Below the pieces are notes generated by a model that worked only from the letters and a program-made list of their open reading frames with translations, was not told the DNA's origin and searched no databases. Position numbers and translations under genes: made by a program. Below, piece by piece: positions 10,201 through 43,762 of a stretch of DNA of 64,000 nucleotides (position 1 is the stretch's first letter; every line of letters starts with the position of its first letter). The stretch is from a virus. The stretch is taken from positions 32,196-96,195 of IMG/VR virus record IMGVR_UViG_3300020180_000013; one strand, 5' to 3'.

Positions 10201-12187
10201 GAGACATCTCTTTTAAAGACTTAATCTGATCAGTCAGAGAATTGGTTTGTCCGGATTTAAGAAGAGTGTATATATGAATAAATACACTTTCATCTATAGA
10301 GTTTTCAAAAGCTTTCTGATCATTATCTTCTATAGCCTGGTCAACATGAGCATTAGATTTCTTTTGAAGAACAAAGTTCTTATCTATTAAGCTAATAGCT
10401 TTAACATATTTAGCAGGATCTTTCATTGTGTCAATGATAGCCTCAGTAACAGAATTTATATATTCTTGTTTGGCCTTACTATAACTAGCATATCCTTTAG
10501 GATCAAATATCTTTTTAGTAAGTGTTGGTATTCCCTCAAACATTGCTTTCTGTGGGCCTTGGAGAATCCCTCCCATTAAAAATCCAGATAAGAAAGTATT
10601 TAGTCCTTGTCCTGATAACTGAGTATCCAGACTTGCAGAAAAAGAGCTCTTTAAACTAGCTAGGTCCGGATCTTTATAATCTTGCTCATAGTAACTTTTA
10701 AATGCTTGGGATATAACATCCTGAGATGTTTCTTGCAACCCTTCTGTTAAGTTAGCTACAGTATATCTTAGTGATCCTTTAAGTAAGTTACCTGGTCTAA
10801 ATACATTTTTTATTCCCGGTAAAGAGTACTTATCAACAAACCTGGCTGTTTTAGATAGAGGATCTTTTACTAGAATCTTACCAGCTAGGGCTCCTTCAGC
10901 TTCTTCTACAAGAAATCTTTGAACTGGTTTGAATCCTCTAAGAGCATTCTTAAATACTATCTTGTTAGAGAAATATATAAGTGGGATATTAGCTAGTGTT
11001 GTAGCAAATCCTGCAGCTTTAGATTGTTCATATATTTTGTTTGCTTCATCTCCTTCAGGAAGTCTGCCATCATTCTGCTCATAAAAATCATTTACTAATT
11101 TCTCATTTAGATCTATCTGTGCTGATCCTCCTTCTAGTTTCGACTCTGAAGTAACTGCATTGATCTCCCGGATATCTCTATACAGAGATCCTACTCCTTT
11201 ACTCATTTTAGCAAAGTTGGATAGGTTCTTTAATTCACTGAGACTTCCAACAAATTCTGCAGTTCTGCTTAATGGATTAGCCCACTTGGCTACACCTAAA
11301 GCTGTCTGACCAGCATTAGCCCAACTAAATAATTGTCTGGCTTTATTTACTGAATCAATAGAAGATAGAGCTTTCCTAATATTATTCATTGCAGTAAAAC
11401 CTTCACTTAATCTTCTTGGAAGAGAAGTTATATTAGACACTAATCTACCTCCTGTAAGAGGAGCTGCTCCACTGTCTGTAGCTACTGTAATAGCTAGTAG
11501 ACCTAATTCTTCTAAAGCTATTTCACCAATTATACCTGCACTGTAAGCTGTAGTAGCTCCAAAATTTGTGATCCATCCTGCTGCTCCTTCTCTAGAAGAT
11601 GACATATTAGCCATCCTCTTATTCATATCTTCGGAGTGAACCAAATCAGAGTCTAATCCATTGTCATACCACTCACTAAACGTATCTTTAACTCCTAGAC
11701 CTGCCATTCCTAACCAACCTGAAGCCATCCTACCAAAATCTGCAAATCCTGAAGTATTCTCATTGTATACTTTTTCATTATCTCTAAAGGGAGAGAAGCC
11801 TAATTTCTTGAATCCTGAGTGAGAATAGTATCTATCAAAATTCATATTTCTATAACCTGCTCCATAAGAGAAGGTCTTACCATAACCATATTTGTCATTG
11901 GCCCATGAATCTGCTTGCTTGAGATACTGAGCTGCATTTTTAGCAAAGTCTACTGCAGGTGAGGTCTTAACAGAGGGTGCGGGTCCTGTATTGAAGTCTC
12001 CAATAATACTGGAGTTAATATCAGTATTTATAGGATAGGCTGTCTGGTGGGCTCTATTAAAATTGGCTTGCTGATCTTTGGCTTGTCTTGCTTCTAGTTC
12101 TCTTTCTCCTGAAGTTTTACCAAAAACTTTCTGACCCTCTGTGAGTTCCTCACCAGGTTGAGTAGGGAGTGTTTGTTCTTCTGCCAT
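7274..12187 (-). CDS. Large internal virion/ejection (cargo) protein with degenerate zincin motif
   Basis: 1637 aa, directly upstream of the virion RNAP; Gly/Ala-rich hydrophobic helices in the N-terminal third; HVILHQLIH...EFAAEA zincin-like motif. Confidence 0.75.
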   Translation of the reverse strand: MAEEQTLPTQPGEELTEGQKVFGKTSGERELEARQAKDQQANFNRAHQTAYPINTDINSSIIGDFNTGPAPSVKTSPAVDFAKNAAQYLKQADSWANDKYGYGKTFSYGAGYRNMNFDRYYSHSGFKKLGFSPFRDNEKVYNENTSGFADFGRMASGWLGMAGLGVKDTFSEWYDNGLDSDLVHSEDMNKRMANMSSSREGAAGWITNFGATTAYSAGIIGEIALEELGLLAITVATDSGAAPLTGGRLVSNITSLPRRLSEGFTAMNNIRKALSSIDSVNKARQLFSWANAGQTALGVAKWANPLSRTAEFVGSLSELKNLSNFAKMSKGVGSLYRDIREINAVTSESKLEGGSAQIDLNEKLVNDFYEQNDGRLPEGDEANKIYEQSKAAGFATTLANIPLIYFSNKIVFKNALRGFKPVQRFLVEEAEGALAGKILVKDPLSKTARFVDKYSLPGIKNVFRPGNLLKGSLRYTVANLTEGLQETSQDVISQAFKSYYEQDYKDPDLASLKSSFSASLDTQLSGQGLNTFLSGFLMGGILQGPQKAMFEGIPTLTKKIFDPKGYASYSKAKQEYINSVTEAIIDTMKDPAKYVKAISLIDKNFVLQKKSNAHVDQAIEDNDQKAFENSIDESVFIHIYTLLKSGQTNSLTDQIKSLKEMSPAELSEAFGEKPGTNDTSYAQKLDSFTDKVDYLRNRFDVIEKKMVNSFDPSKVKDPTAKIQEYHAREAFDELKKMALFSRYSFDRTLDRMTDITQDAVKSKLLAKASSSAFTLLFDPTQIQDEIDSLKLEIPTYTQSTTAGDKAIAKKKEAILESLIALKLDIIGFQAAIKARSTSATPEQEEDLASAEHAKLLYDSYSKYIKTIANLSDDHILDEDVNNAFRKLKDFYELNEDSVRLASAVNFLTNPETFREAHSRAVEAATVASNNRINYLREGLEEFIKKSEYNEFLNELYKLGAFFDSKEIESLTDTNKLPTKFYSVTSPHGEIPLNSEKGKQILNLIEQFEKATGKQYTEKPIPETQDTTPGYESFARRKFKGDQRTYEDYAKEYGFNSADTESKVISTRVLRNIITGKYSTLREKALARRLLSITKPEEVILFRKDSVSPGSYNPETGIVIDARYSSVDYKSGNNPIEHVILHQLIHKYTTEGIDTDPQFKSDITSLLERARQYSTTEEAKSKYGEAPLNGLSSEKEFAAEAISNDTFQSFLKEIPHEVTQKSTWTDYLNSVKKFFQRLFKVSTDSTLLDQVISLITTKIDTTNVTVTPGGETITTGPASITIATPINQLPEDLRATLISTYRDQNSKLVPEEQENLATLSDDQIAKSLRFKNWIIGFPSAHKILDEFNTRTGRVPEEVVTLEEPVKPTQVIQAVPEVVGDEEILDFQEKVIVTPERMNSIAQKINNNEKLSEGENAIYKSKFAEIDKIAAELKPKEAAIPIIEPELEVIVAAPVPTRSLEARFKDVTTMEQLELLEGELIEDLSTPAIRKAQNLSGELINQMIEDKKKELALSINFDDIKDGEILVMKDKSRYGKTGLGEVVGKTKDTIKVVRYGENGATVYYEPISEIEFKYNEGMEEADLTPDLTTEDKTQMKSNVKAEEDLLKDKSEVDRLHDEATKKSKEENDEEFLSDLGCGE

Positions 12188-19423: not shown

Positions 19424-20071
19424 TTATAAAGATATACTATTTAGTCTCAATTTTCTTCTAGTTTCTATTTGTTTTTCTATAGATTCTCTAGTTCTAGGAA
19501 TTCCTTTTAACTTATAATTGGATATTCCAGTCTTAGTTTTTATAATTTTTTCTATAGTTTCCTGAGAGTGACTTCTTCCTCTAAGTTTATCTCCTATTTT
19601 TTTTCTAGATTCTATAGATCTGGGAGTAGATGGACTCTTCCTTTTTATTCCCTCTAATTTTCTTCTTTTAACAGCTTCAGCTTTTCTTTTTAAGGTTTCT
19701 TCCGATGGTTTATATCCTTTTTTAAATCCTCCTTTATTTTTAACTACATGGTTTCCTCTCCAGATACCTGATTTAAGTTGCATATTATATTCTGGATATA
19801 AATTATCTAAATAATATTGTTCTCTAAAATATATTTCTTCTTTTTTACATAATTCTATAATAGAAAATTCAAAATTATCAGCTCCATATTTTTCATATGA
19901 ATATTGTAAATGTTTATTATGATGTTTTTTTAAATTTAGCTTAGATAGATGTTGATTATATCTAGTTCTAAATGATATAGCACTTCCAATATAAAATTTT
20001 CCATTGATAATATTAGTTATTTTATATATTCCTGTACTATTAAAATTTATATAATCTCCTTGATAAATCAT
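19424..20071 (-). CDS. GIY-YIG homing endonuclease with NUMOD3-like repeats
   Basis: GIYKITN...FYIGSA...R...E..YLD...YN; basic C-terminal repeats (HSQETIEKI). Confidence 0.92.
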   Translation of the reverse strand: MIYQGDYINFNSTGIYKITNIINGKFYIGSAISFRTRYNQHLSKLNLKKHHNKHLQYSYEKYGADNFEFSIIELCKKEEIYFREQYYLDNLYPEYNMQLKSGIWRGNHVVKNKGGFKKGYKPSEETLKRKAEAVKRRKLEGIKRKSPSTPRSIESRKKIGDKLRGRSHSQETIEKIIKTKTGISNYKLKGIPRTRESIEKQIETRRKLRLNSISL

Positions 20072-25112: not shown

Positions 25113-26138
25113 TTATACTGCATTATTATGTAAAAATCTTGGACTTGAACCTGGTGAATAACTAGAAAACATATCATAGTATTTAGAGTACATAGCTTTT
25201 CTATTGGTTTCCCACATCTTAGCCATTTCAGAGAAGTTAGGAGTATTGACAACTGTGAGAGCATTATTTCTTGCTCCTCTAAGTTTTTGTTGAACTAGTC
25301 CTAATGCCTTTTCTACAGACTCATCTTCCATTAATAGATTTTCTAGTATCCTTTCTTTCAGAGCATATTCATAATATTCATTCATATATGGATGATCCGG
25401 AACTAATATATTACCTGATTCATCTTCTAGTGCTCCTTCATAGTTGATATATACTTTTCCACACATCTCATTTCTAGTAGAGTGACTATTAGAATGATTT
25501 AGATTATGATTTAGGCCATCATTAAACCATATGAATCCATTTTTTATAAATGCTTCATCTCTACACATCCAGTTAAGATTAGGACACTCACAATTTATAT
25601 CATGTGAATTCTTAAATCTTATTGGATACATCATATTATAGCTCCTTGAAATAGTATTTATTACTTGAACTAATTGAAAGCCGGTAGTATTTTTACCACA
25701 GCTATCTGTACATCTTGTAAGACAAATAGGAATGGTGGTATTAGGAGTTAATGTTGGTGTACATGCATCAATAACTACATCAGTACATGGATTAGGTTCT
25801 ATTGGATCTTGGTAAGTGGGAATAATATTTTTAATAGGAACTTCTTGTATGTTAGTTCCCTGGCCTGGTATAAAAGTCTCTGTAAAACTACCACATAATA
25901 GAGCAAAGTTCATGACCCTGAAATCCTCTGGAAGTCTTGCTTTTCCATTTACTATATCAAGAACTGTGTTCTTAACCATGTTAATCCTAAGACCAAGATC
26001 ATAGTTACATCTAAGAGCAACTTTAATCAACTGCTGAGGTTCTATTTTTCCTTCTAGAGAATATGTTTTCATATCAACTCTAACACTCTCAAAGAGAGAA
26101 TCAAATGTCTGATACTTTAATGTGTAGTTGAAGTTCAT
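25113..26138 (-). CDS. Tail ring (tubular) protein with Cys/Pro-rich insertion
   Basis: 341 aa; synteny before the muzzle; ARLPEDF...YINY...DESGNILVPD pattern. Confidence 0.6.
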   Translation of the reverse strand: MNFNYTLKYQTFDSLFESVRVDMKTYSLEGKIEPQQLIKVALRCNYDLGLRINMVKNTVLDIVNGKARLPEDFRVMNFALLCGSFTETFIPGQGTNIQEVPIKNIIPTYQDPIEPNPCTDVVIDACTPTLTPNTTIPICLTRCTDSCGKNTTGFQLVQVINTISRSYNMMYPIRFKNSHDINCECPNLNWMCRDEAFIKNGFIWFNDGLNHNLNHSNSHSTRNEMCGKVYINYEGALEDESGNILVPDHPYMNEYYEYALKERILENLLMEDESVEKALGLVQQKLRGARNNALTVVNTPNFSEMAKMWETNRKAMYSKYYDMFSSYSPGSSPRFLHNNAV

Positions 26139-26142
26139 AGTC

Positions 26143-26832
26143 TTATGTTCTTATAGTACCTTGTTTATCATCTGTATTAGGTTCAGAAGGTATTTGCATT
26201 ACTCCAAATAGATCTTTTATTACAGCCTGCTCTATTTCTGCAAAGAGGAAATCCGGAATTGGAGTGACCTGATCTTGTCTTTGAGTACATGCTGAATCTC
26301 CTGATCCATCAGCACATGTGAAAGTTACTAGATCATTTTCAAATATACCATCTACCATTACCGACTCCCAGTCTAAATTTGGAAAATATAAATACTCATT
26401 TATATACCAATAGTATTGTCTCTTGTTATACTTAAAGGTCGATGTCTTAGTCATTGAAGTATAAGTAGAAGGAGCTGTAGGAAATACTTCTTCCGATCCA
26501 TCTATAGAACTGATTGTTCTAAATAGTGGCCCAAATCTAGCTTCCATTATTCCTGGAACTTTCTCTTTACTTCTCTTAAATAAACAATCAGATGTCACTC
26601 CTCCACAACAAGCTTCTATTCTATCTATTTCTATTAATTCCATACATGGAATAGTCCTGAATAGAGTACTGAATTTTATGAGTTGGTTCCTGCCTTCTTC
26701 TCTTTTAATATATAATTTAGCCCATTTAATTATAAGACTATATATAAATCTATCTGTAAGAAAGGAATCTTCTTTTACAGCCTTAACTGAGTTTCTTACC
26801 CGGGATGTAGTAGCTCCTATTGTTGTTGCCAT
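26143..26832 (-). CDS. Tail ring (tubular) protein
   Basis: 229 aa; synteny; YYWYINEYLYFPN...FEN pattern typical of crAss-like ring proteins. Confidence 0.6.
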   Translation of the reverse strand: MATTIGATTSRVRNSVKAVKEDSFLTDRFIYSLIIKWAKLYIKREEGRNQLIKFSTLFRTIPCMELIEIDRIEACCGGVTSDCLFKRSKEKVPGIMEARFGPLFRTISSIDGSEEVFPTAPSTYTSMTKTSTFKYNKRQYYWYINEYLYFPNLDWESVMVDGIFENDLVTFTCADGSGDSACTQRQDQVTPIPDFLFAEIEQAVIKDLFGVMQIPSEPNTDDKQGTIRT

Positions 26833-27423
26833 TTAATCAAAATTAAATTCATCATAATTAGTAAGATCAATTTCCTTAACTGGAATTACAAAATCTATAT
26901 AAGGCTTGTTAGAAAAAAGTCTGGATGCTTTAACTCCACTTGCAAGATGAACAAATTTCTTGTAGTCTTTTCTAAACTCTTTTGAGCCTGCTCTCTTGAA
27001 CTGTCTTACTGCAAAGAAGGACCAGAGTTCTCTATTTCTAAATTTGTATTTGGTTCCATAATTAGTATATATAATTTTTGCTAAATGATTATCACACTCC
27101 CAGTTCTTATGAAGAACTTTATGGCCGGCTTCTTCTGATCTTTTATAATCAATAACTTCTCTCTTGCTTGGATTACATCCTACTATAATAATATTTCCTA
27201 ATCCTTCTCTTAATTTTACTCCATCTCTTAGTTCAACTATACTTTTCCAAATATTTTCATTATCCTTTTTTATAACTTTATTAAATATTTTATAATCTAC
27301 ATCTATATACTGAGGATACTTTTCAGTAAATTGTTTAAATAACTCTTTAGATAATGAGTAGATATGTTTGTCTCTGAATCTGGGACCTTTAATATTTGGT
27401 TTTTTAACTACTGTAGAAGTCAT
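26833..27423 (-). CDS. Basic hypothetical protein, possibly divergent HU/IHF-like fold
   Basis: 196 aa, Lys-rich; helix then GVKLREGLGNIIIV hairpin reminiscent of HU/IHF. Confidence 0.4.
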   Translation of the reverse strand: MTSTVVKKPNIKGPRFRDKHIYSLSKELFKQFTEKYPQYIDVDYKIFNKVIKKDNENIWKSIVELRDGVKLREGLGNIIIVGCNPSKREVIDYKRSEEAGHKVLHKNWECDNHLAKIIYTNYGTKYKFRNRELWSFFAVRQFKRAGSKEFRKDYKKFVHLASGVKASRLFSNKPYIDFVIPVKEIDLTNYDEFNFD

Positions 27424-27488: not shown

Positions 27489-27525
27489 AAAGAGAAAACC
27501 CCGATTTTCACCGGGGTCTCTCTTT
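27489..27525 (-). terminator. Intrinsic terminator
   Basis: Minus strand ACCCCG-GTGAAAAT-CGGGGT stem-loop followed by TTTCTCTTT, downstream of the fibre block. Confidence 0.75.
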
Positions 27526-27562: not shown

Positions 27563-28087
27563 TTAAGCCAATGTCTCAACTAATAATGTCACTGAATAAC
27601 AATTACCTACAGTACATGTAGCATTAACTCTTATATGATATTCTTCATTTGGTATAAGTCCGGTAATAGTATCTGTGGTAGCTGTTGGACCAAGTAAAGG
27701 TCTTAATATCCATACACCACTAGATGCTAGTTTGTACTCAACTTGATAGGTTAATACATCTGTTACTAAAGCCCACCCTGGAGTAATGCTAGTATTTGTG
27801 ATAGATATAATAGAAAGGGTATTCACAGAAGCACATGTTCCACCTGTAACACATCCCGGGTTAGTAGCCAATAGTATAAGTTTTTGAATAATAGAATTGA
27901 GTCTGTCTCCGGTATTAATAGGAACATCTACAATACTAGGGCCTGAGTATATGACACAATTAGCATCAAAGAATTCAGAACAAGGTTCAGGATTAGGACA
28001 GCTTGCATCTCCTGGACAAGGAAATGTAGGAACTGTAGTAAAAGCCTGATCTTTACAGCCACATGGGGCTTTATGTCCACAATTCAT
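27563..28087 (-). CDS. Cys-rich structural protein with C-terminal fibronectin type III domain
   Basis: FN3 pattern ITNTSITPGW...YQVEYK...W...TITGLIPNEEYHIRVNA; N-terminus CVIYSGP is paralogous to 30514-32079. Confidence 0.7.
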   Translation of the reverse strand: MNCGHKAPCGCKDQAFTTVPTFPCPGDASCPNPEPCSEFFDANCVIYSGPSIVDVPINTGDRLNSIIQKLILLATNPGCVTGGTCASVNTLSIISITNTSITPGWALVTDVLTYQVEYKLASSGVWILRPLLGPTATTDTITGLIPNEEYHIRVNATCTVGNCYSVTLLVETLA

Positions 28088-28114: not shown

Positions 28115-28315
28115 TTATATAGATATGTCTTTTGTATACAAAGTTTCTATATCTACATTGACAATTATTCCAGTTAATACATCTAATAAAGCTAATTCAT
28201 TTTCTACTCCCTCAATTGATGTTGCAAAATATGGAGTATCATAGTCTACTAATTCCTCGTTTTGTTTCTTCCATATTTTATCAAGAATATCCTGATTTTG
28301 TTTAGTATAAGTCAT
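28115..28315 (-). CDS. Small acidic hypothetical protein, possible -1 frameshift extension of the upstream ORF
   Basis: 66 aa; its frame is open back through the T TTA AAT heptamer of the upstream ORF. Confidence 0.5.
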   Translation of the reverse strand: MTYTKQNQDILDKIWKKQNEELVDYDTPYFATSIEGVENELALLDVLTGIIVNVDIETLYTKDISI

Positions 28316-28329
28316 TACTCCTTTATCTG

Positions 28330-28518
28330 TTAATTTAAAGAAACTCTTGCTACTGCATCAGTAAAAACTTTATTACCTGGAGTTGATACAAAATTTGCTA
28401 TATCCTGTAAAGTAGATCGTTTAGCTGTAGTTGTCCCAAAAGGGACTATAGGAAAAATATCTCCTCCTGAAAGAGGAGGAGCTGGATCAAATTGATCTAC
28501 TCTTTTATTTATTGCCAT
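28330..28518 (-). CDS. Short protein consisting mainly of the shared KRVDQF anchor domain
   Basis: MAINKRVDQF...DIFPIV...STLQDI is paralogous to the N-termini of the two upstream genes. Confidence 0.7.
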   Translation of the reverse strand: MAINKRVDQFDPAPPLSGGDIFPIVPFGTTTAKRSTLQDIANFVSTPGNKVFTDAVARVSLN

Positions 28519-28520
28519 GA

Positions 28521-29063
28521 TTATACAGGAATTATTTTATATTTTAAATAAATTAATATATCACTATTTCCTGCTGTAGGATTTCCAGTAAAGACATATG
28601 CTTGAACTTTTTTATTTTCTTCAAGCTGTGCTGGATTAGAATGAGCTGCAGCCATACTAACACCAAAAGATGGTATCCAGATACAAGTTCCTGCATTTGC
28701 TAATCTCTCAGTAAATCCATTTATTACAGTTAAACTAGTATCATATACTAATCCTAAAGTTGTATTTGTTGCGTATGGAGTTCCTCCATAAGTTCTTATC
28801 TTAAAGATAGCTACTGTAACTAAATTAGCAAAACCAATTCCAGGACTTGGAATTAAGTCTATAGGAGTTGAATTTAAAGTAAGAACATCTGCAGAAAGGA
28901 TAGTAGTCTCTACTGTAAACTCATCATTTACTGCATCTTTGATGTCTTGTAAAGTAGTTTGTAAAGCAGCAGTTCCAGCTCCTTGAACTATAGGAAGAAT
29001 ATCTGTTAGAGCAAGTGGTGTGGTTGCTAATCCAAATTGGTCTACTCTTTTGTCTACTGCCAT
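28521..29063 (-). CDS. Putative fibre-tip/receptor-binding protein (anchor + small beta domain)
   Basis: 180 aa; first ~43 aa nearly identical to those of 29129-30493. Confidence 0.6.
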   Translation of the reverse strand: MAVDKRVDQFGLATTPLALTDILPIVQGAGTAALQTTLQDIKDAVNDEFTVETTILSADVLTLNSTPIDLIPSPGIGFANLVTVAIFKIRTYGGTPYATNTTLGLVYDTSLTVINGFTERLANAGTCIWIPSFGVSMAAAHSNPAQLEENKKVQAYVFTGNPTAGNSDILIYLKYKIIPV

Positions 29064-29132
29064 GATTGATTTAGTTTTATAATTATGATTGATTTAGTTT
29101 TATAATTATGATTGATTTAGTTTTATAATTAT
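29062..29132. repeat. Perfect tandem repeat, 3 x 23 bp (ATGATTGATTTAGTTTTATAATT)
   Basis: Copies at 29062, 29085 and 29108, read directly from the sequence. Confidence 0.97.
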
Positions 29133-30493
29133 ACTACTGCTGCATCTACTACAAGAGTTCCTACTAATATAGTAGTATTTCCATTGATAGCCAAGTTAGC
29201 TACAGATGTTCCATATACATGGACATTTTCAGCTGTAACACTATTTATAGAATTAGCTCCTGCTCCTGCAATAAGAGTGGTAGAGTTTAATATTAAAGTT
29301 GAAGCAAAATCTTTTCTAATTGCTTCTGTTGCTGCAGCTGGTGTTATAACTCTACAAGAGTTTAGTATTAGTACTCCACTACCAAAATTAATAACTGGTA
29401 CAAATAGTGTACTTGTTATAGTTCCTCCATTGACAATTATTTGTCCTCCTACAGCTGCTCCACTATTATTTACAGCAACTGCTCCTGCAGCACTACTACT
29501 TATATCTCCATTAAATACACATCTTCCTGTAGATCCTAATTGATAACCATGTGCTGAAGCATTTGATCCTGATGTAGTATTTCCATTAACTGTAAGATTT
29601 CCGTAACCTGTTGTAGTACCACATATACCAAGTGTATTTGTACTATTTCCATTAAGAATGGTTGATCCTGCAGAGATCACTATATTGGCAGCATTACTAG
29701 ATGCATTGATATTACCATTCATAGTTATAGTTCCTCCGGTATTGGTAATTGCTTGACCTGCTGAATTTGTGATATTTCCATTTAAAGTAGCAGTTCCTGC
29801 AGATATTAAAATACCTCCACTAGTACTAACTATATTTCCATTGGAAACTAGTATACCTGCTTGTACTTGTATAGGTGTTCCATTAGTAGTATTTACAGTA
29901 CCGTAAGTTGTTAGTGTACCGTTAGTAAGAAGAATAGTATTAAGAAGGTTGGAATTAAAATTATTAGCATATACTGTAACTACACTTCCTGCATTCTGAA
30001 GTCTAATAGCATGGCCATTTGTTCCTGCTGTAGTTCTTTGTATAGTGTGGGCATTATATATAACACTATTACAAGCTATATTATTATCATCAATAGCAGC
30101 TAGTACTCCTGCTGCCAGATCTATAGATCCTCCATTGAGGTCCCAATCAATAAAATTACCTAGAACTATGCCTTCTGCAGAATTAAAGTTTTTTACACTA
30201 ATACTTATCCTTTTGGTAGCACTAGGAGTTAATGCTGCTGCTGCAATTGAAGCTGCTGCTTTGGTTAAAAAAGGCAAATCTGCCCTTTCAGCCAGACCAG
30301 TACTATCTGATCCAAAACTTTCATCTACAAATACAGTATTTGAAACAGGTAATTGTAATGCTCCATCTCTTATATCTGCAAGAGTACATTGTAAAGCAGC
30401 AGTACCTGGTCCTTGAACTACAGGGAAAATATCTGTTAAAGCTAGTGGTACTACAGCTAAGTTAAATTGATCGACTCTTTTATCTACTGCCAT
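29129..30493 (-). CDS. Putative tail spike with parallel beta-helix (anchor + beta-helix)
   Basis: 454 aa; VFVDESFGSDSTG...PFLT start, then ~21-aa G/N/T/I coils (xxxGTxTxNGNI). Confidence 0.72.
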   Translation of the reverse strand: MAVDKRVDQFNLAVVPLALTDIFPVVQGPGTAALQCTLADIRDGALQLPVSNTVFVDESFGSDSTGLAERADLPFLTKAAASIAAAALTPSATKRISISVKNFNSAEGIVLGNFIDWDLNGGSIDLAAGVLAAIDDNNIACNSVIYNAHTIQRTTAGTNGHAIRLQNAGSVVTVYANNFNSNLLNTILLTNGTLTTYGTVNTTNGTPIQVQAGILVSNGNIVSTSGGILISAGTATLNGNITNSAGQAITNTGGTITMNGNINASSNAANIVISAGSTILNGNSTNTLGICGTTTGYGNLTVNGNTTSGSNASAHGYQLGSTGRCVFNGDISSSAAGAVAVNNSGAAVGGQIIVNGGTITSTLFVPVINFGSGVLILNSCRVITPAAATEAIRKDFASTLILNSTTLIAGAGANSINSVTAENVHVYGTSVANLAINGNTTILVGTLVVDAAVV

Positions 30494-30513
30494 TTTATTT
30501 AGTTTTTAAATTA

Positions 30514-32079
30514 TTATCCTAAAAGCCATTTTGATCCATCAAGTTGTAAGAAGTATCCTCTGGCCGGGTCTCCTGCTGTACCTGTCCATAACCAGAATGA
30601 TCCCGGTAATGTAGATACTGTTCCAAAAGGACAGAAGATATCAACTCCATCTACAGTCACTACTGCTCTTATTTTATATGTAGTTCCTGAAGTCACACCT
30701 GCACCACTAAATGTTCCACCTACTGGGCCTATTGCAGGATTAATGAAGTTCATAGAAGTTACCAAAGTAACTCCTGCTGCATCATACAACTGAATAGTAT
30801 ATGTTATAGGTGTTCCTACTATATTATTAAATGTGAATGGAATGGTTGTCTCAGTAGGAGTAGTAGTTATAGTAGGACAAGCTGTAGTATTAACTATAGT
30901 ATAATTAATCTCTCTCTCACAGGTTGTATTAGTTGAAGGATTAGTCCAGCATCCAAATAGCTCAAGATTGAAATTACAAGCAAGGCTTAAAGGTGTTGCA
31001 GAAATATCTATTGAGTATCCTGGTATGTTATTAACATATGTTAATACCGGTATATTAGTAATTAACTGTGTTCCAAAACAATCTGTAATTATTAACTCAT
31101 TTCCTGCAGAGAAGCAATCTATAAATCCTGCAGGTACTGAGCCGGTAAAGAATAGTGTAATTATTGTACCTGAGAAAGTAGCTGTCATATTAATTACTAA
31201 AGCCTCACATCCTGTAGGACAACATGTTTCTTGAATATTTTTAACTGCAGCTCTTAAATCACATATAGTGATCCACATGTTATTGATTGAGTCTGCTAGA
31301 TCATTATAATTTACTTGAGTGATCCATCCTGAGAGACTACCCATATTTACTCCAGGAAGTCCTAGTGACTGCTCTAGATCTAGACCGGCACATTGTTTCT
31401 GTATAGATAGAAATATATCATTAGGTGTTCCTGTTGCCGATCTGAGCTCGCAGAACTGTTGTTCTAAAGCTGCAACTATTGTAGATATTGGTACTGGATC
31501 AGAAGGTGGTGGAGTGATTACACAAACCGGAAACATTGTTACTTCTGGTTGTGGAACATCACTGCAGCAGTTTAATTCGATATAAGTTAACCTTGCTTCA
31601 TGATTAGCAAGAGTCTGTTGTATAGTAGTAATAGTCTGTAGTATAGTGCAGATCTTATTTCCAATTGCAGTAACATAGTCTGTTAACTGCATTGTAGTGA
31701 TCTGGTCTCCTAATTGATTTATAAAATAGAAACAAGGAGCAATATTAACTACACAATCAGGACATCCTGTAGGTGTAGGAGGAGCTTCTCCATTACAGCA
31801 CTGTTCTAGTGTACATATCTTATCTAGAACAAATTGTAAAAGATCATGAATATTTTCCGGGGTAGGACAAATTGGGTTAAAACAGGTAAGATCAAAAGTA
31901 TTAATATCTAATTGATCAACTAATGTACAGAGCTCCTGGGCTAACTTAGCTACTACATCACTTACAGAATCCCCTTTACATAGTGTTATACAAGGAATAT
32001 CAGGTCCTTGCCAGATAACACAGTTAGAGGATATTGGATTACACCCCTCTTGATTTGTATTTGATTGTATTGGAAGCAT
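30514..32079 (-). CDS. Cys-rich fibre/appendage protein (coiled coil, FN3-like domain, C-terminal FLQxDGxxWLL peptide)
   Basis: Likely true start MLPIQS at 32079 (521 aa); the upstream 62 codons of the tracked ORF overlap a promoter and the previous gene. Heptad ILQTITTIQQTLANHEARL. Confidence 0.68.
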   Translation of the reverse strand: MLPIQSNTNQEGCNPISSNCVIWQGPDIPCITLCKGDSVSDVVAKLAQELCTLVDQLDINTFDLTCFNPICPTPENIHDLLQFVLDKICTLEQCCNGEAPPTPTGCPDCVVNIAPCFYFINQLGDQITTMQLTDYVTAIGNKICTILQTITTIQQTLANHEARLTYIELNCCSDVPQPEVTMFPVCVITPPPSDPVPISTIVAALEQQFCELRSATGTPNDIFLSIQKQCAGLDLEQSLGLPGVNMGSLSGWITQVNYNDLADSINNMWITICDLRAAVKNIQETCCPTGCEALVINMTATFSGTIITLFFTGSVPAGFIDCFSAGNELIITDCFGTQLITNIPVLTYVNNIPGYSIDISATPLSLACNFNLELFGCWTNPSTNTTCEREINYTIVNTTACPTITTTPTETTIPFTFNNIVGTPITYTIQLYDAAGVTLVTSMNFINPAIGPVGGTFSGAGVTSGTTYKIRAVVTVDGVDIFCPFGTVSTLPGSFWLWTGTAGDPARGYFLQLDGSKWLLG

Positions 32080-32094
32080 GTCTCTATGTGTGTT

Positions 32095-32129
32095 AATATA
32101 ATATACAATTAATTTTTTTAATCTCCAAA
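32095..32129 (-). promoter_or_regulatory. Putative promoter TTTGGA-N18-TATATTAT
   Basis: Same motif and spacing as 38321-38355; lies ~15 nt upstream of the ATG at 32079. Confidence 0.6.
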
Positions 32130-32212
32130 ATAAATATCTAAAGTAGCCAAAAAGTTTCATCATCTTGTAAAAAGAAAGCTTCAGTAGAAGTACCACCATC
32201 ACCTTCATATAA

Positions 32213-34687
32213 CTATGCATCTGTAACAGCCGGGATTGGAGGTATTGGACAATCTGATAATTCACTACATATCATTGTACCACATAGGATTTCGTCATTT
32301 GTTCCTACATAAAATAAACATCCCCCTATCTCTCCTTGAGCTGTAGTATTCACTCTCTGAAGTAATATACAAATACCTGTTTCATCAAAAGTGATTATCT
32401 CTAAATTAACTGAAGATATAGATATAGATGCTGTAAGCAGTGCTTGTAGTTGATCTATAGTAGAAGTTGTAGATAATGTAACCGGAGTATTAATTGCTGC
32501 ACCTCCTATTGTGAATGCAAAAATACTTGAAATAGTATCTTCCGTATTAAACTCAGCAACACATAACTTAGTATAGCACATCTCTCCATTAAATACATGT
32601 GCAGGAGCTGGGCATGGAAACATTGAATTACTTGCTGAACAAGTAGAACATGGATTACAAGTATTACACTTGTTTACTTGACAACATGTAGAAATAGTAT
32701 TGCATGGATTAGGAAAACATGCATTGATTTGTTCAGGACAATAATTGGGATCTACTAGTTTACTTAAGTCAGATAATTGCTTTCTTAACCATAGTTGAGG
32801 TAAATGAATACCTTCACAACAAGTACCTACTCCATATTTTAGCTTTTTAACAACCTTATAGAATCCTTCACCAAATCTCTTGTTATCATTAATATCACAT
32901 TCTCTCTCATCTATCTTATAAAAGATCCTTACTGGATCAGGTATAACTTTAGCTGGAGGAGGAATAGGTATTATAACTTTTGGTATACAGCATTCACAAT
33001 CTGCATAGATCCCGGGATTATATGAAGTAATAACTACTGCATCATCACATGTACCACTTATAGATACTAACCAACATAATATAGGATCTATCTCAGGTCC
33101 TCCTTCAATAACTAGCTCATTAACAATCTTACCTACTATTTCAGCCAGGTTTGATGTAGTTACAATAGGATCTTCTACACCAGTGCAATTGGTTAATAAA
33201 TAACATATAGGGGGATTACACTCTAAACAATCTGCAAAGACTGTAATTACAGGATCTACTATTACTCCAATAGTATTATCACAATTATTTGCTAATGATA
33301 CAGTCCAACAGATATCTCCAAATGATTCTATCTTAATAGTCTGCCCTAGATATACTTCAAAGTCATTAGATACTGTAATAGGTATATGAGGATCTGTATC
33401 AGAACAGTCTGTTAATATATAACAAGTTGGATTACATGTATCACAATCTGAAAAACTAGTAATAGTATATCCTCCAGGAAGTCCTATAGATCCAACACAT
33501 GATCCGGCCAATGTTACTTGCCAACAAATATCCCCATATGAAGATACTTTAATTGTCTGACCTACATATGCACTTAGATCATTAGATATAACCTGAGTAG
33601 GCTCAACACTTTCACAATCAGTTATCAAATAACATATTGGAGGTGCACATGTTTCACAACTAGTGAATGAAGTTATTACTGCTCCTGGTAATGGATTTGG
33701 ACCTGGAAAATCTACATCATTACATGAAATCTGAGTTACTGTCCAGCATGTATCCGGATCTAAACTAGTTCCTGATACTTTAATTGCTCCTATTCCTATA
33801 TAGGGTGCTACTACATCATTATTTGTTATTACTATATTTTGAGGGTTAGCACAATCTATTAATTGATAACAACATACTATAGGTGCTGACTCTATTTTTA
33901 CACACTGGTAGTCTTGACCAGGACATAATGATAGAATATATCCGGGGGCACACTGGTATCCTTGTATCTCAGCTAGTTCAAAATAACTGGATACTCTACT
34001 CATACTAGAATATATAGTTACTGCAGCTAATTGAACTGGTGAAACATAAGATAATAATTGAGCTAATGTTGCATTATAGATCTCTGCTGCAAATCCTGCA
34101 GTAGCTCCTCCTCTACTTAATCCTTCAAAAGAGAGGATATTGGTTCCGGCCTGAAGTGTAATTGGAAATACATGCCAATACTGATATGGAAATTGTGTAG
34201 AATAAGTTGTAGTTTGAACAAATACTTGACCATTTAACTTAATTCTAAATTCATTTTCTGCAGAAATACCTATATAGTAAGTGGTCTCTTGTAGTAATTC
34301 TAAACAGAATGTAAATCCAATCCACTCATTTACATGTTGAACTGGATTTTGATCATCACAAATCCATACACCGGCATTATTTAATCTACCATTATTTACA
34401 TTGCCATTGCCCCATAATACTGTAGGACCACTAGAATTAGTTACAAGAAGTGTATTATTTATTCCATCTAGAAATCTATCTGGAGTTATAGCTGACGTTA
34501 TGGGTAATGGTCTACTATTAGTTGATTCATAAAATAGAGCTCCATTTAGGTTATACTTTGGTTGTCTAATTAAACTACATACCTGATTAATAGGATATCC
34601 TGAAAGATTTCCAATAGTAATTTTCTGGCAGCCAGAACCATCTGGAGTAATCTGATAACCTGGAGGACAATTACATTCTAGAGCCAT
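32213..34687 (-). CDS. Cys-rich modular structural protein (EGF-like motif, PA14-like domain, four 6-Cys repeats)
   Basis: 824 aa; CNCPPGYQITPDGSGC; YYIGISAENEFRIKLNG...ITLQAG (PA14-like); repeats CYxxxxC...CW...C...CxxC. In-frame extension to 32138 after the TAG. Confidence 0.7.
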   Translation of the reverse strand: MALECNCPPGYQITPDGSGCQKITIGNLSGYPINQVCSLIRQPKYNLNGALFYESTNSRPLPITSAITPDRFLDGINNTLLVTNSSGPTVLWGNGNVNNGRLNNAGVWICDDQNPVQHVNEWIGFTFCLELLQETTYYIGISAENEFRIKLNGQVFVQTTTYSTQFPYQYWHVFPITLQAGTNILSFEGLSRGGATAGFAAEIYNATLAQLLSYVSPVQLAAVTIYSSMSRVSSYFELAEIQGYQCAPGYILSLCPGQDYQCVKIESAPIVCCYQLIDCANPQNIVITNNDVVAPYIGIGAIKVSGTSLDPDTCWTVTQISCNDVDFPGPNPLPGAVITSFTSCETCAPPICYLITDCESVEPTQVISNDLSAYVGQTIKVSSYGDICWQVTLAGSCVGSIGLPGGYTITSFSDCDTCNPTCYILTDCSDTDPHIPITVSNDFEVYLGQTIKIESFGDICWTVSLANNCDNTIGVIVDPVITVFADCLECNPPICYLLTNCTGVEDPIVTTSNLAEIVGKIVNELVIEGGPEIDPILCWLVSISGTCDDAVVITSYNPGIYADCECCIPKVIIPIPPPAKVIPDPVRIFYKIDERECDINDNKRFGEGFYKVVKKLKYGVGTCCEGIHLPQLWLRKQLSDLSKLVDPNYCPEQINACFPNPCNTISTCCQVNKCNTCNPCSTCSASNSMFPCPAPAHVFNGEMCYTKLCVAEFNTEDTISSIFAFTIGGAAINTPVTLSTTSTIDQLQALLTASISISSVNLEIITFDETGICILLQRVNTTAQGEIGGCLFYVGTNDEILCGTMICSELSDCPIPPIPAVTDA

Positions 34688-34702: not shown

Positions 34703-34885
34703 TTACAATTGAGATAGACTTTGATTATTTTTTGGTAATTGTACTGGTTTTGGTTGTACTTTAGGTTGTGTTAGTTTCTGGTTATATGCACTAACACAAC
34801 TTGTACAACACTGTTGTTTATCTAAAGCTACTCTTACGTGGCAGCCACATGATAGTGACGTTCCACAATTATTACATTTTGCCAT
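34703..34885 (-). CDS. Small Cys-rich (putative Zn-binding) protein
   Basis: 60 aa; CNNC...CGC...CCTSC; preceded by an AAACCAAC leader. Confidence 0.7.
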   Translation of the reverse strand: MAKCNNCGTSLSCGCHVRVALDKQQCCTSCVSAYNQKLTQPKVQPKPVQLPKNNQSLSQL

Positions 34886-34932: not shown

Positions 34933-35523
34933 CTATAAATTTCCAATACAGGCTCTGGATATATTTGATCTAGCTATTTTTAATGTATCTGCTGCTTCTT
35001 TTATACAATTCCATTCTTTTATTAATAGATTATCTTTTGTATATTGATAAATCTTTTTCATTTGTTTCTTCCCTGGATTGATATCTGATAACATTCTTTG
35101 TCTATTAGATTCATCTACTCCATTTAGTTTGTTTATATTAGCAACTCTTCTAGCTATAGAGGACTCTTTCATAGGATTTCTATCTGATTTCATCCTTTCT
35201 ATAATTGCTTTATTATTTTGTCTTCCTGTTCCTCCATCTCCACCAATAGTTCCGTTAGTTAATTTACAGAAACTTTTATAATGTTTTATTAATTCTATTT
35301 CACAAAAATTTAGATTTGATTCAGAACCTGTATATAATATTTTAAAACTAGGTTTTATATTATTAATTTTCAATAATCTTATCCATTTCTGTTTATGAGT
35401 ACCTAGATATTTTTCTGTTAAATGTTTACTTAATCTAGACTTAGGAAATAAAGTTTTTCCAATGTATCTAATTTGATCATTTCTAGGATCAACTAATGCA
35501 TATATATGTCCTTGTCTTTCCAT
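34933..35523 (-). CDS. GIY-YIG homing endonuclease with apparently truncated NUMOD1 domain
   Basis: HIYALVDPR...RYIGKT...R...E...LTNGTIGGDG; C-terminal IYQY...IKEW...EAA...NISRAC. Likely start MERQG at 35523. Confidence 0.85.
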   Translation of the reverse strand: MERQGHIYALVDPRNDQIRYIGKTLFPKSRLSKHLTEKYLGTHKQKWIRLLKINNIKPSFKILYTGSESNLNFCEIELIKHYKSFCKLTNGTIGGDGGTGRQNNKAIIERMKSDRNPMKESSIARRVANINKLNGVDESNRQRMLSDINPGKKQMKKIYQYTKDNLLIKEWNCIKEAADTLKIARSNISRACIGNL

Positions 35524-35524
35524 A

Positions 35525-36082
35525 TTAACAATTTCCACACCCACATAAACAACTTAATTTATTTAGTCTCTTTAATGCATATAAATAAATATCCATTCCA
35601 TGTTTTGGTGAATGACAGTATTCTACTTTTGCTTTTGCTGCATCAAATAATGTTCTTATGAACTGAAGTTCTCTAATGAACTTATCTATCTCTGCAGTAG
35701 GATCACAACCTCTTATATCAAGACAACATAATACATTACTGTATTTTTTTAGTGCTGATGTTATTCTTAAATGATTATATTCTACAAAGACTATATCATT
35801 GGGAGAAACACTATATCTTGCAATATATACTCCATCTGGTAGGGTATTGAATGTAGTAGTGCAATTAGTTGTTTGAATACCTAAAGCACATGCTGTGATA
35901 TTCTCTATAAATCCGGGTTCTATATCTGGTACTATAGAAGCTTCCCAAAATCCTGGACTTGTTATTTCTAACTTAGGACACTCAAGAGGAATAGTAGGAT
36001 CATAAACTGAAGTATCTATAACTCTTATAATGCAAGAGTTCAGTACATCAGGTATTTCTAGACTTAGGACATGTTTTGCCAT
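35525..36082 (-). CDS. Hypothetical structural protein (Cys-rich)
   Basis: 185 aa; LPDGVY Ig-like strand then helical C-terminus; located in the structural block. Confidence 0.55.
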   Translation of the reverse strand: MAKHVLSLEIPDVLNSCIIRVIDTSVYDPTIPLECPKLEITSPGFWEASIVPDIEPGFIENITACALGIQTTNCTTTFNTLPDGVYIARYSVSPNDIVFVEYNHLRITSALKKYSNVLCCLDIRGCDPTAEIDKFIRELQFIRTLFDAAKAKVEYCHSPKHGMDIYLYALKRLNKLSCLCGCGNC

Positions 36083-42145: not shown

Positions 42146-43762
42146 CTAGAAGCTGAATCCAGTAATAGGGTTTCTCATTACAATTTTTAACACCTTAGTT
42201 GGATCTTTAACCCAAAGAGCCGGCATTGTTTGTGTCATCATAACTCTGTATCCATTAAATTGACCAGATGATTGGAAACCTTGAGGTCTTCCCATGTAGT
42301 CCATTGTTCCATTTTGGTAGAACCATTTCAATTGGTTATCCCAAGATAGTTTCAATAAGAAGATATTATCATTACCATGATCAGTAACATCAAATATGAT
42401 GAATGAATATGATGATAATGGTCTTCCATCAATGATTGGATTTTCTATATCATTTGTATGTAAATTATCAAATGCAGGATTCAACACAAACTTAACATTA
42501 GCCAAGAAAGGGATAACATAAGAAGTGTAAGCAAATCCAAAGTTAAGATCCATTCCTGATCCTGTAATAGCTCCTACATCAGAAGCATTAATTACAAGTC
42601 CTGAATTTACTGCTTCACGTTTGATAGCTTCATTTACTAGTTTCATTCCACCAATTCCTGTTTGAACAATAAGTGATCTCTTAGGATCTGGACCTTGGAA
42701 TTCAACTTTACCGGCATAGAAATTATAAATTTCTGATTTGAATAAATCAAGAGTAAATCCTGATTTGTTATAAACCCTTTTGAAGGAGTTATCAAGTTGT
42801 CTCCAAAGACCTACTGATAATCTCATATCATCTGGACCATCTTGTTTAATTCTACCACCATGTCCCCACATTAAGTAAGTTTCAATGTCAGTAGCTACTT
42901 TACTTAAGTGAGCTGCTTCCATAGTAGTTAAGAATGTTCTGGATAAATTTCCATTTTCCATTGCTTTCTTAACATAATCTTTACCCATTACAGTAACCAT
43001 GTTCTCTAAAGAAGTAACTGAAGGATCAACATTTTTATCAAATGTTCTCCAAATTTCAGTAACTGGGATTGAACCATTAGCATTCAATCCACCTTTGATC
43101 ATAAGATCAGCTCTTGAAGAAATAGAATAGTGAACATGTGCTTCAGCTCCACCTACATAGTTGTAAAATTGACGGAAACCTGTAGCTGTTCTGATGTCAG
43201 AAAACCTTTCACCATACTCACCTCTTGCAGAACCTTTTCTGAATACTTTGGTACCTGCAGTAAGATATTTATTTTCTAAGAATTTGTAATTGTCATTGTT
43301 TACAAGTTGTACAGTATAGATGTATCCATCTCCCATTGGAAGAATGTCATCAGCTGTTATGTACATCTCAACTCCATTGTATTTGTCATAAGTGATAATA
43401 TCACCATGTCCAAATTCTCTTTTGTTGATCTTAACATGAAAAGTTGTACCATCAACACCTTTTGTTGTGTTAGTTGGTTCAATGTCTTCAATGATATAAG
43501 GTAAATCTTGTACAACTGGAGTTTCCCATTTGTATTCTCCTCTAACGTTATCTACCATGATGATGTTCTTACCACCAAAAGAAGATAGTTGATAAAGAGG
43601 CATTTCTACTTTCTGTGCCATAGCCCAAAGGTCTACTGGACCAAGATCCATAGGTTCTTCACTCTTCAACATATTCACCAAGTGATAAGAATCCACATGT
43701 GAGGATACTTGATAAGATGTATCTCTAAGGAAGATACCATTATTTAATACTGGAGTTGCCAT
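42146..43762 (-). CDS. Major capsid protein (crAss-like HK97 fold)
   Basis: 538 aa; position portal-scaffold-MCP; EYKW, ETYLMWG, VGLWRQL, VQTGIGG and WVKDPTK motifs. Confidence 0.85.
   Translation of the reverse strand: MATPVLNNGIFLRDTSYQVSSHVDSYHLVNMLKSEEPMDLGPVDLWAMAQKVEMPLYQLSSFGGKNIIMVDNVRGEYKWETPVVQDLPYIIEDIEPTNTTKGVDGTTFHVKINKREFGHGDIITYDKYNGVEMYITADDILPMGDGYIYTVQLVNNDNYKFLENKYLTAGTKVFRKGSARGEYGERFSDIRTATGFRQFYNYVGGAEAHVHYSISSRADLMIKGGLNANGSIPVTEIWRTFDKNVDPSVTSLENMVTVMGKDYVKKAMENGNLSRTFLTTMEAAHLSKVATDIETYLMWGHGGRIKQDGPDDMRLSVGLWRQLDNSFKRVYNKSGFTLDLFKSEIYNFYAGKVEFQGPDPKRSLIVQTGIGGMKLVNEAIKREAVNSGLVINASDVGAITGSGMDLNFGFAYTSYVIPFLANVKFVLNPAFDNLHTNDIENPIIDGRPLSSYSFIIFDVTDHGNDNIFLLKLSWDNQLKWFYQNGTMDYMGRPQGFQSSGQFNGYRVMMTQTMPALWVKDPTKVLKIVMRNPITGFSF

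Follow-up and report, generated by a model that had tools for sequence, protein, structure and literature searches.

By what means might a phage mount extra receptor-binding proteins on tail fibres that it already has? The question is raised by a 64,000-nucleotide stretch of DNA (the window), which covers positions 32,196 to 96,195 of the 96,195-bp IMG/VR virus record IMGVR_UViG_3300020180_000013 (completeness estimate 81%). Three consecutive minus-strand genes, encoding proteins of 454, 180 and 62 amino acids (aa) and termed p454, p180 and p62, have in common an N-terminal segment of 43 aa, the anchor. A preliminary description of this DNA, made from the letters alone, had proposed that the anchors plug exchangeable heads onto a peptide found at the C-termini of two fibre genes just upstream, p824 and p521.

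The explanation favoured here is that a crAss-like phage from the environment acquired, within its tail-fibre module, an accessory cassette specific to its lineage. This cassette would consist of two intact extra receptor-binding proteins (p454 and p180), a remnant (p62) and the small protein p66. The two accessory proteins would attach through the anchor, as a module of a widespread fibre family, and the new docking site would be a Trp-rich unit of 26–28 aa at the C-termini of the resident fibres p521 and p824. Docking on these units would produce branched fibres with several receptor specificities. In this strain the p824 unit is switched off by a TGG-to-TAG change and the p521 unit is intact. 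That the locus is a modular set of accessory fibre genes is well supported. That the anchors dock on the Trp-rich unit as a plug in a socket is put forward tentatively, as somewhat short of an even chance.

The shared anchor and its C-terminal heads

The anchor has the consensus MA(V/I)xKRVDQF..A..PL...DI.P.V....T.A...TL.DI, with 21 invariant columns. Over 46 aa, p180 displays 74% identity to p454 and p62 displays 49%. Of 45 anchor codons compared between p454 and p180, 24 are identical, 10 show synonymous and 11 non-synonymous differences. The synonymous differences point to conservation at the protein level, not to recent gene conversion. Beyond the anchor the three proteins are unrelated: p454 continues as a beta-helix, p180 as a small head, and p62 has only 17 further residues. 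The preliminary description had read the three genes as a common anchor fused to unrelated C-termini, and the comparisons bear out both the anchor and the C-termini, as well as a modular construction of fibre- or tailspike-type proteins on one attachment module.

The structural model of p454 is a right-handed beta-helix with a predicted local distance difference test score (pLDDT) of 80–97 through most of residues 75–450. Foldseek matches to it are weak and are all beta-helix proteins, including phage tailspikes and polysaccharide lyases; a phmmer search of PDB sequences gave nothing meaningful. Residues 1–49, which include the anchor, are unstructured in the monomer model (pLDDT <50). A poorly folded lone anchor would fit a segment that becomes ordered on a partner. 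The heads appear to be exchangeable units. The beta-helix head of p454 is found in protein P0002 on a different N-terminus of 115 aa, and the p180 head is found in P0005, in P0035 and in a 176-aa gene of the crAss-like locus L122. The p180-type head is combined with two anchor subtypes. A search of the ESM Atlas with p180 yielded unnamed viral clusters only. A perfect 23-bp tandem repeat between p454 and p180 reproduces the complete stop-spacer-start module, and a spacer similar to this repeat lies ahead of p454.

The p62 anchor belongs to a different subtype, closer to those of P0007, P0008, P0013 and P0035. The 17-residue tail of p62 can be aligned to the post-anchor linker of the longer protein P0020, and downstream of p62 there is no further head remnant. 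By these alignments p62 is probably what truncation has left of a longer anchored gene, which is the simplest reading. The tail had also been considered as the first strand of a beta-helix; this was dropped in favour of the better alignment to the P0020 linker.

The anchor family

A profile of the three anchors was searched against 1.84 billion representative proteins and gave 34 proteins at E-value ≤ 1e-3. In 33 of these the match is at the extreme N-terminus (alignments start at residues 1–5); the exception, P0006, is a repetitive false positive. The matching proteins are from 49 to 601 aa long and have unrelated C-termini. The same holds for 80 IMG/VR anchor loci that were examined: the motif is at the extreme N-terminus and the C-termini are unrelated.

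Two branches can be distinguished. The close branch has starts such as MA.DKRVDQF or M..LRVDQF; patterns of this subtype gave no confirmed case in IMG/VR. The broad branch, M(A)DKKISQL.AATTPLAGTE.LPIVQGG.T.K, is much larger and is confirmed in at least 587 IMG/VR stretches, nearly always as one gene per contig. Its members in cultured phages (Flavobacterium phages, a Halomonas phage and phage DSL-LC05) are annotated as hypothetical proteins only. Neither Pfam nor PHROGs contains a model for the anchor or for the Trp-rich unit.

A phmmer search of PDB sequences with the close-subtype profile gave nothing meaningful. The broad-branch profile, which scores 33–49 bits against the window anchors, matched the tail fibre protein gp22 of phage crAss001 in the PDB with an E-value of 0.0057. 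With a profile limited to the N-terminus, residues 24–55 of gp22 score 26.1 bits, versus noise of ≤ 9 bits among 29,026 open reading frames. The motif A..PL...(D/E)..P.VQ.G....T keeps a fixed spacing, and the spacing F-x5-PL-x3-(D/E)-x5-Q is the same in gp22. On this sequence evidence the anchor is a member of a large, uncatalogued N-terminal module, predicted to serve the attachment of phage fibres, that includes gp22.

In the solved crAss001 virion, gp22 trimers attach through residues 1–26 to the THA2-THB hub, formed by tail hub proteins A (THA) and B (THB) (PMC10172136). The window anchors do not have the first 23 residues of gp22. The homology thus marks a fibre attachment module and not the place of docking.

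Three 37-kb podovirus-like contigs (L061, L096 and L113; 10001–11140) have an anchored gene of the broad family between the portal and the scaffold/capsid genes. This position after the portal mirrors that of gp21 and gp22 in crAss001.

The Trp-rich unit

The pattern [YF]FLQ.D...WLL has exactly two matches in the six-frame translation of the window. One is the C-terminal end of p521 (GYFLQLDGSKWLLG). The other (FFLQDDETFWLL, positions 32141–32176) is in frame behind the TAG that ends p824 (32213–32215), and is followed by a second TAG. The proposal that both genes end in this peptide is thus correct for p521; in p824 the peptide lies beyond the stop codon. The similarity of the two copies spans about 26 residues, with the p824 TAG aligned opposite a Trp.

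Sister strains account for this arrangement. The 846-aa protein P0038 reads ...VTDA-W-LYEGDGGTSTEAFFLQDDGTFWLL, with TGG (Trp) at the stop position. The 90% cluster of p824 has five protein variants, two of 846 aa, one of 824 aa (the window form) and two of 821 aa. The 824-aa form was seen on five contigs from two data sources. The 821-aa forms have another sequence background and end at the same residue (…VTDA). In all, stop alleles (824 and 821 aa) are present on seven of 11 strain contigs and TGG alleles (846 aa) on four. The polymorphic codon is the last-but-24th of p824; past the stop, the 24 codons are intact and in frame, and differ by one residue from those of the TGG strains. The presence of the stop in two backgrounds and on seven contigs shows it to be a real and widespread allele, not an error of sequencing.

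All six protein variants in the sister-strain p521 cluster have the p521 unit in identical form. Longer starts of p521 given by gene callers (548–568 aa; 30514–32265) were rejected, as they have no support from relatives. The upstream extension is a hydrophobic, low-complexity frame that overlaps the tail of p824.

P0039 and P0040 are relatives of p824, 37–40% identical over the last 210 aa, in which the motif occurs three times with Pro-rich linkers. The three units are GFWLYTLGGFFIQDDGSKWVID, GFWLWTDISGDEGLFRQADGSRWLLG and GFFLWTNDIGGPGFFIQADGSKWIIG. The three copies show that the "socket peptide" is one unit of a Trp-rich module of 22–28 aa. The number of units at fibre C-termini varies from 0 to 3 among relatives. 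The unit is predicted to be, probably, a small beta-hairpin or a three-stranded sheet. With its triplication, Pro-rich linkers and variable copy number, the unit looks like an appended, independent module.

Searches for further units gave little. The three-unit region of P0039 yielded P0039 and P0040 only. A degenerate DNA pattern detected only a half-unit (YFEQSDGSKWLI), near the C-terminus of an unrelated viral protein of 764–862 aa with no anchors nearby. The unit gave nothing in a phmmer search of PDB sequences or in the ESM Atlas, and p521 gave nothing meaningful in a phmmer search of PDB sequences. The unit was also compared with the T4 foldon and with a hairpin like that of crAss001 gp21; both comparisons were dropped because neither resemblance is clearly significant against shuffled sequences (foldon p 0.006–0.27 across the units).

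Joint presence of anchor and unit

The locus was compared with 35 related fibre modules, nine from IMG/VR and 26 from metagenomes. The gene order p185, p60, p824-like, p521-like, p174-like, p196, ring protein 2 (R2), ring protein 1 (R1) is kept in these relatives (for gene designations see Table 1 and the following section). Neither an anchor nor a unit is present in any of the 35 modules. In three of these relatives, with genomes that are 90–100% complete, there is no anchor and no unit genome-wide; the other 32 were compared as fibre-module loci. Run as positive controls on crAss001 and on the genome to which the window belongs, these searches do find gp22 and both units, respectively.

The p521 homologue of the relatives ends right after the last Ig-like domain, and the p174-like gene comes directly next. 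In the window the 28-residue unit is appended to p521 exactly where the relatives end, and p454, p180, p62 and p66 follow. Unit and cassette are therefore one lineage-specific block. The gene p66 has no match in the nine IMG/VR relatives (L002–L010); in the 26 metagenome loci no p66-like gene lies between the p521-like and p174-like genes, p66 itself not having been searched for there.

Outside the immediate strain group, the anchored beta-helix protein P0018 and the three-unit protein P0039 are each on a contig of 12,844 bp, and the anchored beta-helix protein P0020 and the three-unit protein P0040 are each on a contig of 62,025 bp. The pattern of presence and absence in these sequences would fit a joint acquisition of anchor and unit. 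Since the relatives build virions without anchored proteins, the newcomers would depend on a newly gained site of attachment. Among the fibre features, the unit alone was gained together with the cassette, and it is therefore taken as the likeliest site.

The phage and the gene neighbourhood

The window belongs to a crAss-like phage, as is evident from its Pfam ring and capsid families and from the fold of p185. The Pfam matches are CrAss_Ring_2 (tail ring protein 2; 26143–26832, E-value 1.9e-24), CrAss_Ring_1 (ring protein 1; 25113–26138, E-value 5.2e-5; its score of 23.2 bits is short of the gathering cut-off, 27 bits) and Crass_capsid (major capsid protein; 42146–43762, E-value 4.5e-30). 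A megablast search of the region against cultured phages gave no match at the DNA level.

All genes of the fibre region are on the minus strand. In the 5′ to 3′ direction their order is p702 (Ig domain), p185, p203 (GIY-YIG), p60, p824, p521, p454, p180, p62, p66, p174 (FN3), p196, R2, R1 and a gene for a 1680-aa protein, which occupies the muzzle position (an assignment by position and size). The tail module of the Crassvirales is thus represented by the two ring proteins R1 and R2, by a protein of muzzle size downstream of them, by the crass capsid protein and by THA. The only strong terminator-like hairpin found in a terminator scan of the fibre genes, cassette included, is at 27495–27520, after p174. 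Table 1 lists the features of the region.

Table 1. Features of the fibre region, by position in the window (–, minus strand).
Feature	Position	Strand	Remarks
p174, small resident fibre protein, Cys-rich N-module and FN3 domain	27563..28087	–	Pfam fn3; BLASTP with p521
p66, small protein of the lineage-specific block	28115..28315	–	seen on 7 sister-strain contigs
p62, different anchor subtype and 17 residues	28330..28518	–	17-residue tail aligns to post-anchor linker of P0020
p180, anchored small-head accessory fibre protein	28521..29063	–	anchor residues 1–43 (28935–29063)
23-bp perfect tandem repeat, 3.1 copies (TAATTATAAAACTAAATCAATCA)	29062..29132		between p454 and p180
p454, putative anchored beta-helix (tailspike-like) accessory receptor-binding protein	29129..30493	–	anchor residues 1–43 (30365–30493)
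p521, resident fibre protein, Cys-rich N-module	30514..32079	–	start (ATG 32079) chosen by alignment to relatives
Trp-rich unit on p521 (SFWLWTGTAGDPARGYFLQLDGSKWLLG)	30517..30600	–	absent in 35 relatives; unit model 66.8 bits
Trp-rich unit of p824 (LYEGDGGTSTEAFFLQDDETFWLL)	32141..32212	–	behind TAG; part of the protein in TGG strains; 56.7 bits
p824, Cys-rich resident fibre protein	32213..34687	–	ended by TAG 32213–32215; homologues in relatives
p60, small Cys-rich protein	34703..34885	–	conserved beside p185 in relatives; without family match
p185, homologue of crAss001 THA gp38	35525..36082	–	kept in all relatives; AlphaFold2 (AF2) model pLDDT 88

The AF2 model of p185, compared with 48,161 PDB representatives, has its best match in 7qoj_G (Z 8.7; 148 aligned residues, both domains), which is the crAss001 tail hub protein A, gp38. 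The match was found by VIA-align only; Foldseek missed it, and a pairwise hhalign comparison by sequence was uninformative. By virtue of this homologue, the phage has the crassvirus fibre-docking hub. That the neighbouring p60 is a THB-like partner of the hub is only a guess.

Two GIY-YIG homing endonuclease genes are present within the structural module, at 34933–35544 and 19424–20071. The first of these, p203, also has a NUMOD1 domain and is placed between p185 and p60, a position at which the relatives have no such gene.

A second N-terminal module, Cys-rich and of the form C..SSNCVIWQGPDI.C..LC.GDS.SDV, is common to p521 (31900–32079) and p174 (27900–28087). BLASTP relates the two N-termini with an E-value of 1.5e-4. 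This module is 57–81% conserved across all relatives, and hhalign found no relationship between it and the 43-aa anchor. The resident fibres probably use it as their own module for attachment.

The gene p196 (26833–27423), which all relatives conserve, lies immediately upstream of ring protein 2. It had been considered as a hub protein; this was dropped, since it has instead a weak alignment to the IHF/HU-like gp42 of crAss001 (hhalign pairwise E-value 0.017). A phmmer search of PDB sequences with p196 gave nothing meaningful. In five relatives (L013, L020, L028, L031 and L035; ~9100–10500 in each) an extra gene with a conserved start, e.g. ITVNFISNYAGPHRICWRIQG, precedes the p196 homologue. 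It may represent a third N-terminal module class of this clade.

Alternative explanations

Several observations weigh against docking of the anchor on the unit. The preliminary description expected the two motifs to occur together across phage genomes. They do so in the window lineage and probably in two more, P0018 sharing a contig with P0039 and P0020 with P0040, a pairing that is deduced from the identical contig sizes alone. The three lineages are related, and so their co-occurrence may be a single evolutionary event. The anchor family at large does not follow the expectation, as none of the 80 loci examined (of at least 587 IMG/VR stretches) has a unit. The usual partner of the family must therefore be something else. 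The only structurally placed member, gp22, docks in the hub via residues 1–26, which are mostly N-terminal to the shared motif. In addition, the p824 unit is stopped in seven of 11 strain contigs and p454 and p180 are retained. Locus L122, a 29.5-kb fragment from a crAss-like relative, has its 176-aa anchored p180-like gene between the p824-like and p521-like genes; the p824-like gene has no recognisable unit and none is found in the fragment, in which the end of the p521-like gene is cut by the contig edge.

These points lead to a second explanation, which is a serious possibility, only slightly less likely than docking on the unit: p454 and p180 would sit elsewhere on the virion, either at the hub/collar (p185 and its partner) in the manner of gp22, or by way of p66. 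The unit would then be a distal nucleus for trimerisation or folding, or a glycan-binding tip, and its presence together with the anchors would reflect shared descent or one recombination. The homology of the anchor to the N-terminal region of gp22, which docks in the THA2-THB hub, the THA homologue in the window phage, the abundance of the anchor family without units and the anchored gene of L122 are all in agreement with this. The insertion is also one uninterrupted block, which starts with the unit and extends to p66 as expected of a single recombination, and the half-unit YFEQSDGSKWLI occurs in an unrelated viral protein away from any anchor. A site at the hub, however, is not easily reconciled with the complete relatives, which have the hub and no anchored protein. 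In these the hub is presumably already taken by the resident fibres, and the N-module of those fibres has no relationship to the anchor. The window anchors moreover do not have the 23 additional N-terminal residues with which gp22 enters the hub. As for the unit, its loss from p824 in many strains is contrary to an essential folding nucleus, and shuffling gives no clear significance to its similarity with the T4 foldon.

Docking on the unit is thus retained as the favoured reading, in which the anchor would bind the unit and p454 and p180 would be virion-borne receptor binders. A broader form of it is doubtful. In this form the anchor and the unit would constitute a self-contained, portable docking pair, the number of units would set the number of accessory proteins, and the TGG/TAG change would toggle the mount.

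A third explanation takes the stop codon and p62 as functional: programmed read-through or suppression of the TAG would give a short and a long p824, and p62 would act as a cap or competitor for the sockets. The intact, in-frame codons behind the TAG, only one residue off the TGG strains, agree with this, as do the stop at the same residue (…VTDA) in two backgrounds on seven contigs and the identical p62 sequence on five contigs. Nevertheless it is improbable. One G-to-A change is enough to explain the stop, and there is no tRNA gene in the 96-kb record (81% complete). A general recoding of TAG is excluded, as TAG ends 12 other long open reading frames and no other in-frame TAG is present. A role for an anchor-only protein as a cap or competitor had been suggested in the preliminary description; p62 looks truncated instead, with a tail that corresponds to the first part of the linker in a longer relative. 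Further database entries that are short and "anchor-only" are on contigs of 1–3 kb and one clusters with a 369-aa protein, so that these look like fragments.

That the anchored proteins are head fibres, with an anchor trimer held in a capsid hexon pocket like the first 38 residues of gp21, is very improbable, for although crAss001 head fibres bind hexon pockets via short N-terminal segments and the podovirus-like contigs have the anchored gene between portal and scaffold/capsid genes, the anchor matches the tail fibre gp22 (gp21 and gp29 score ≤ 2 bits), the genes are inside the tail-fibre block between resident fibres and ring genes, and anchored proteins are missing from relatives that share the capsid genes.

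Comparison with known systems

Some phages carry several tailspikes mounted on one another via N-terminal modules, e.g. TSP1–4 of CBA120 and gp63.1/gp66 of G7C. These employ folded XD or T4gp10-like domains of at least 100 residues, in contrast to the 43-aa peptide and 26-aa tail considered here.

The branched receptor-binding proteins of KP32, K11 and KP34, podophages of Klebsiella, consist of an anchor, a branching domain and a conserved docking peptide (PMC6872550, PMC13352976). In these phages a short conserved peptide at the N-terminus of a secondary receptor-binding protein docks this protein on a primary fibre bound to the virion; the two genes lie side by side, and the heads, beta-helix enzymes or binders, can be exchanged. 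The window likewise has adjacent genes for putative receptor-binding proteins with a short conserved N-terminal peptide as a candidate for docking. The proposed socket, however, is a Trp-rich unit at the extreme C-terminus, in place of an internal branching domain of T4gp10 type; a Pfam search of p824 and p521 yields neither T4_gp9_10_N nor any other family (E-value ≤ 0.1). The plug also differs, as it is a 43-aa module of a different family, and the host virus is crAss-like. By analogy, the locus would represent the principle of branched receptor-binding proteins, realised with different and much smaller parts in a crAss-like phage.

Fibre gp22 of crAss001, with its hub of THA gp38 and THB gp39 (PMC10172136; PDB 7QOJ), has the motif (D.F/QL)..A..PL...(D/E)..P.VQ.G at the fibre N-terminus, as do the window proteins, and its hub protein THA has a homologue in the window phage. 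The differences are that gp22 has 23 extra N-terminal residues, whereas the window anchors start seven residues before the motif; that relatives of the window clade have the hub without an anchored protein; and that the gene follows the portal in crAss001 and is inside the fibre block in the window.

The foldon of T4 fibritin, a 27-residue C-terminal beta-hairpin trimerisation domain, is similar to the unit in size, in its place at a fibre C-terminus and in an aromatic-x-x-x-D-G-x-W-hydrophobic pattern. Unlike the foldon, the unit has a spacing that is one residue off, occurs in up to three copies and can be lost.

Significance

Little is understood of how the abundant Crassvirales recognise their hosts. 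In the structure of the crAss001 virion, gp22 is seen for residues 1–26, and the fibre assemblies past these residues are unresolved (PMC10172136). If the anchor binds the unit, no smaller add-on system for the mounting of further receptor-binding proteins would be known, and the pair would explain a one-step widening of the receptor repertoire in a crAss-like lineage. Should there be no binding, the locus is simply an ordinary case of modular evolution in fibres. Independently of docking, the anchor family, found in at least 587 IMG/VR stretches and absent from Pfam and PHROGs as a model, marks fibre or tailspike genes in many uncultured phages, and connects these genes with gp22 of crAss001.

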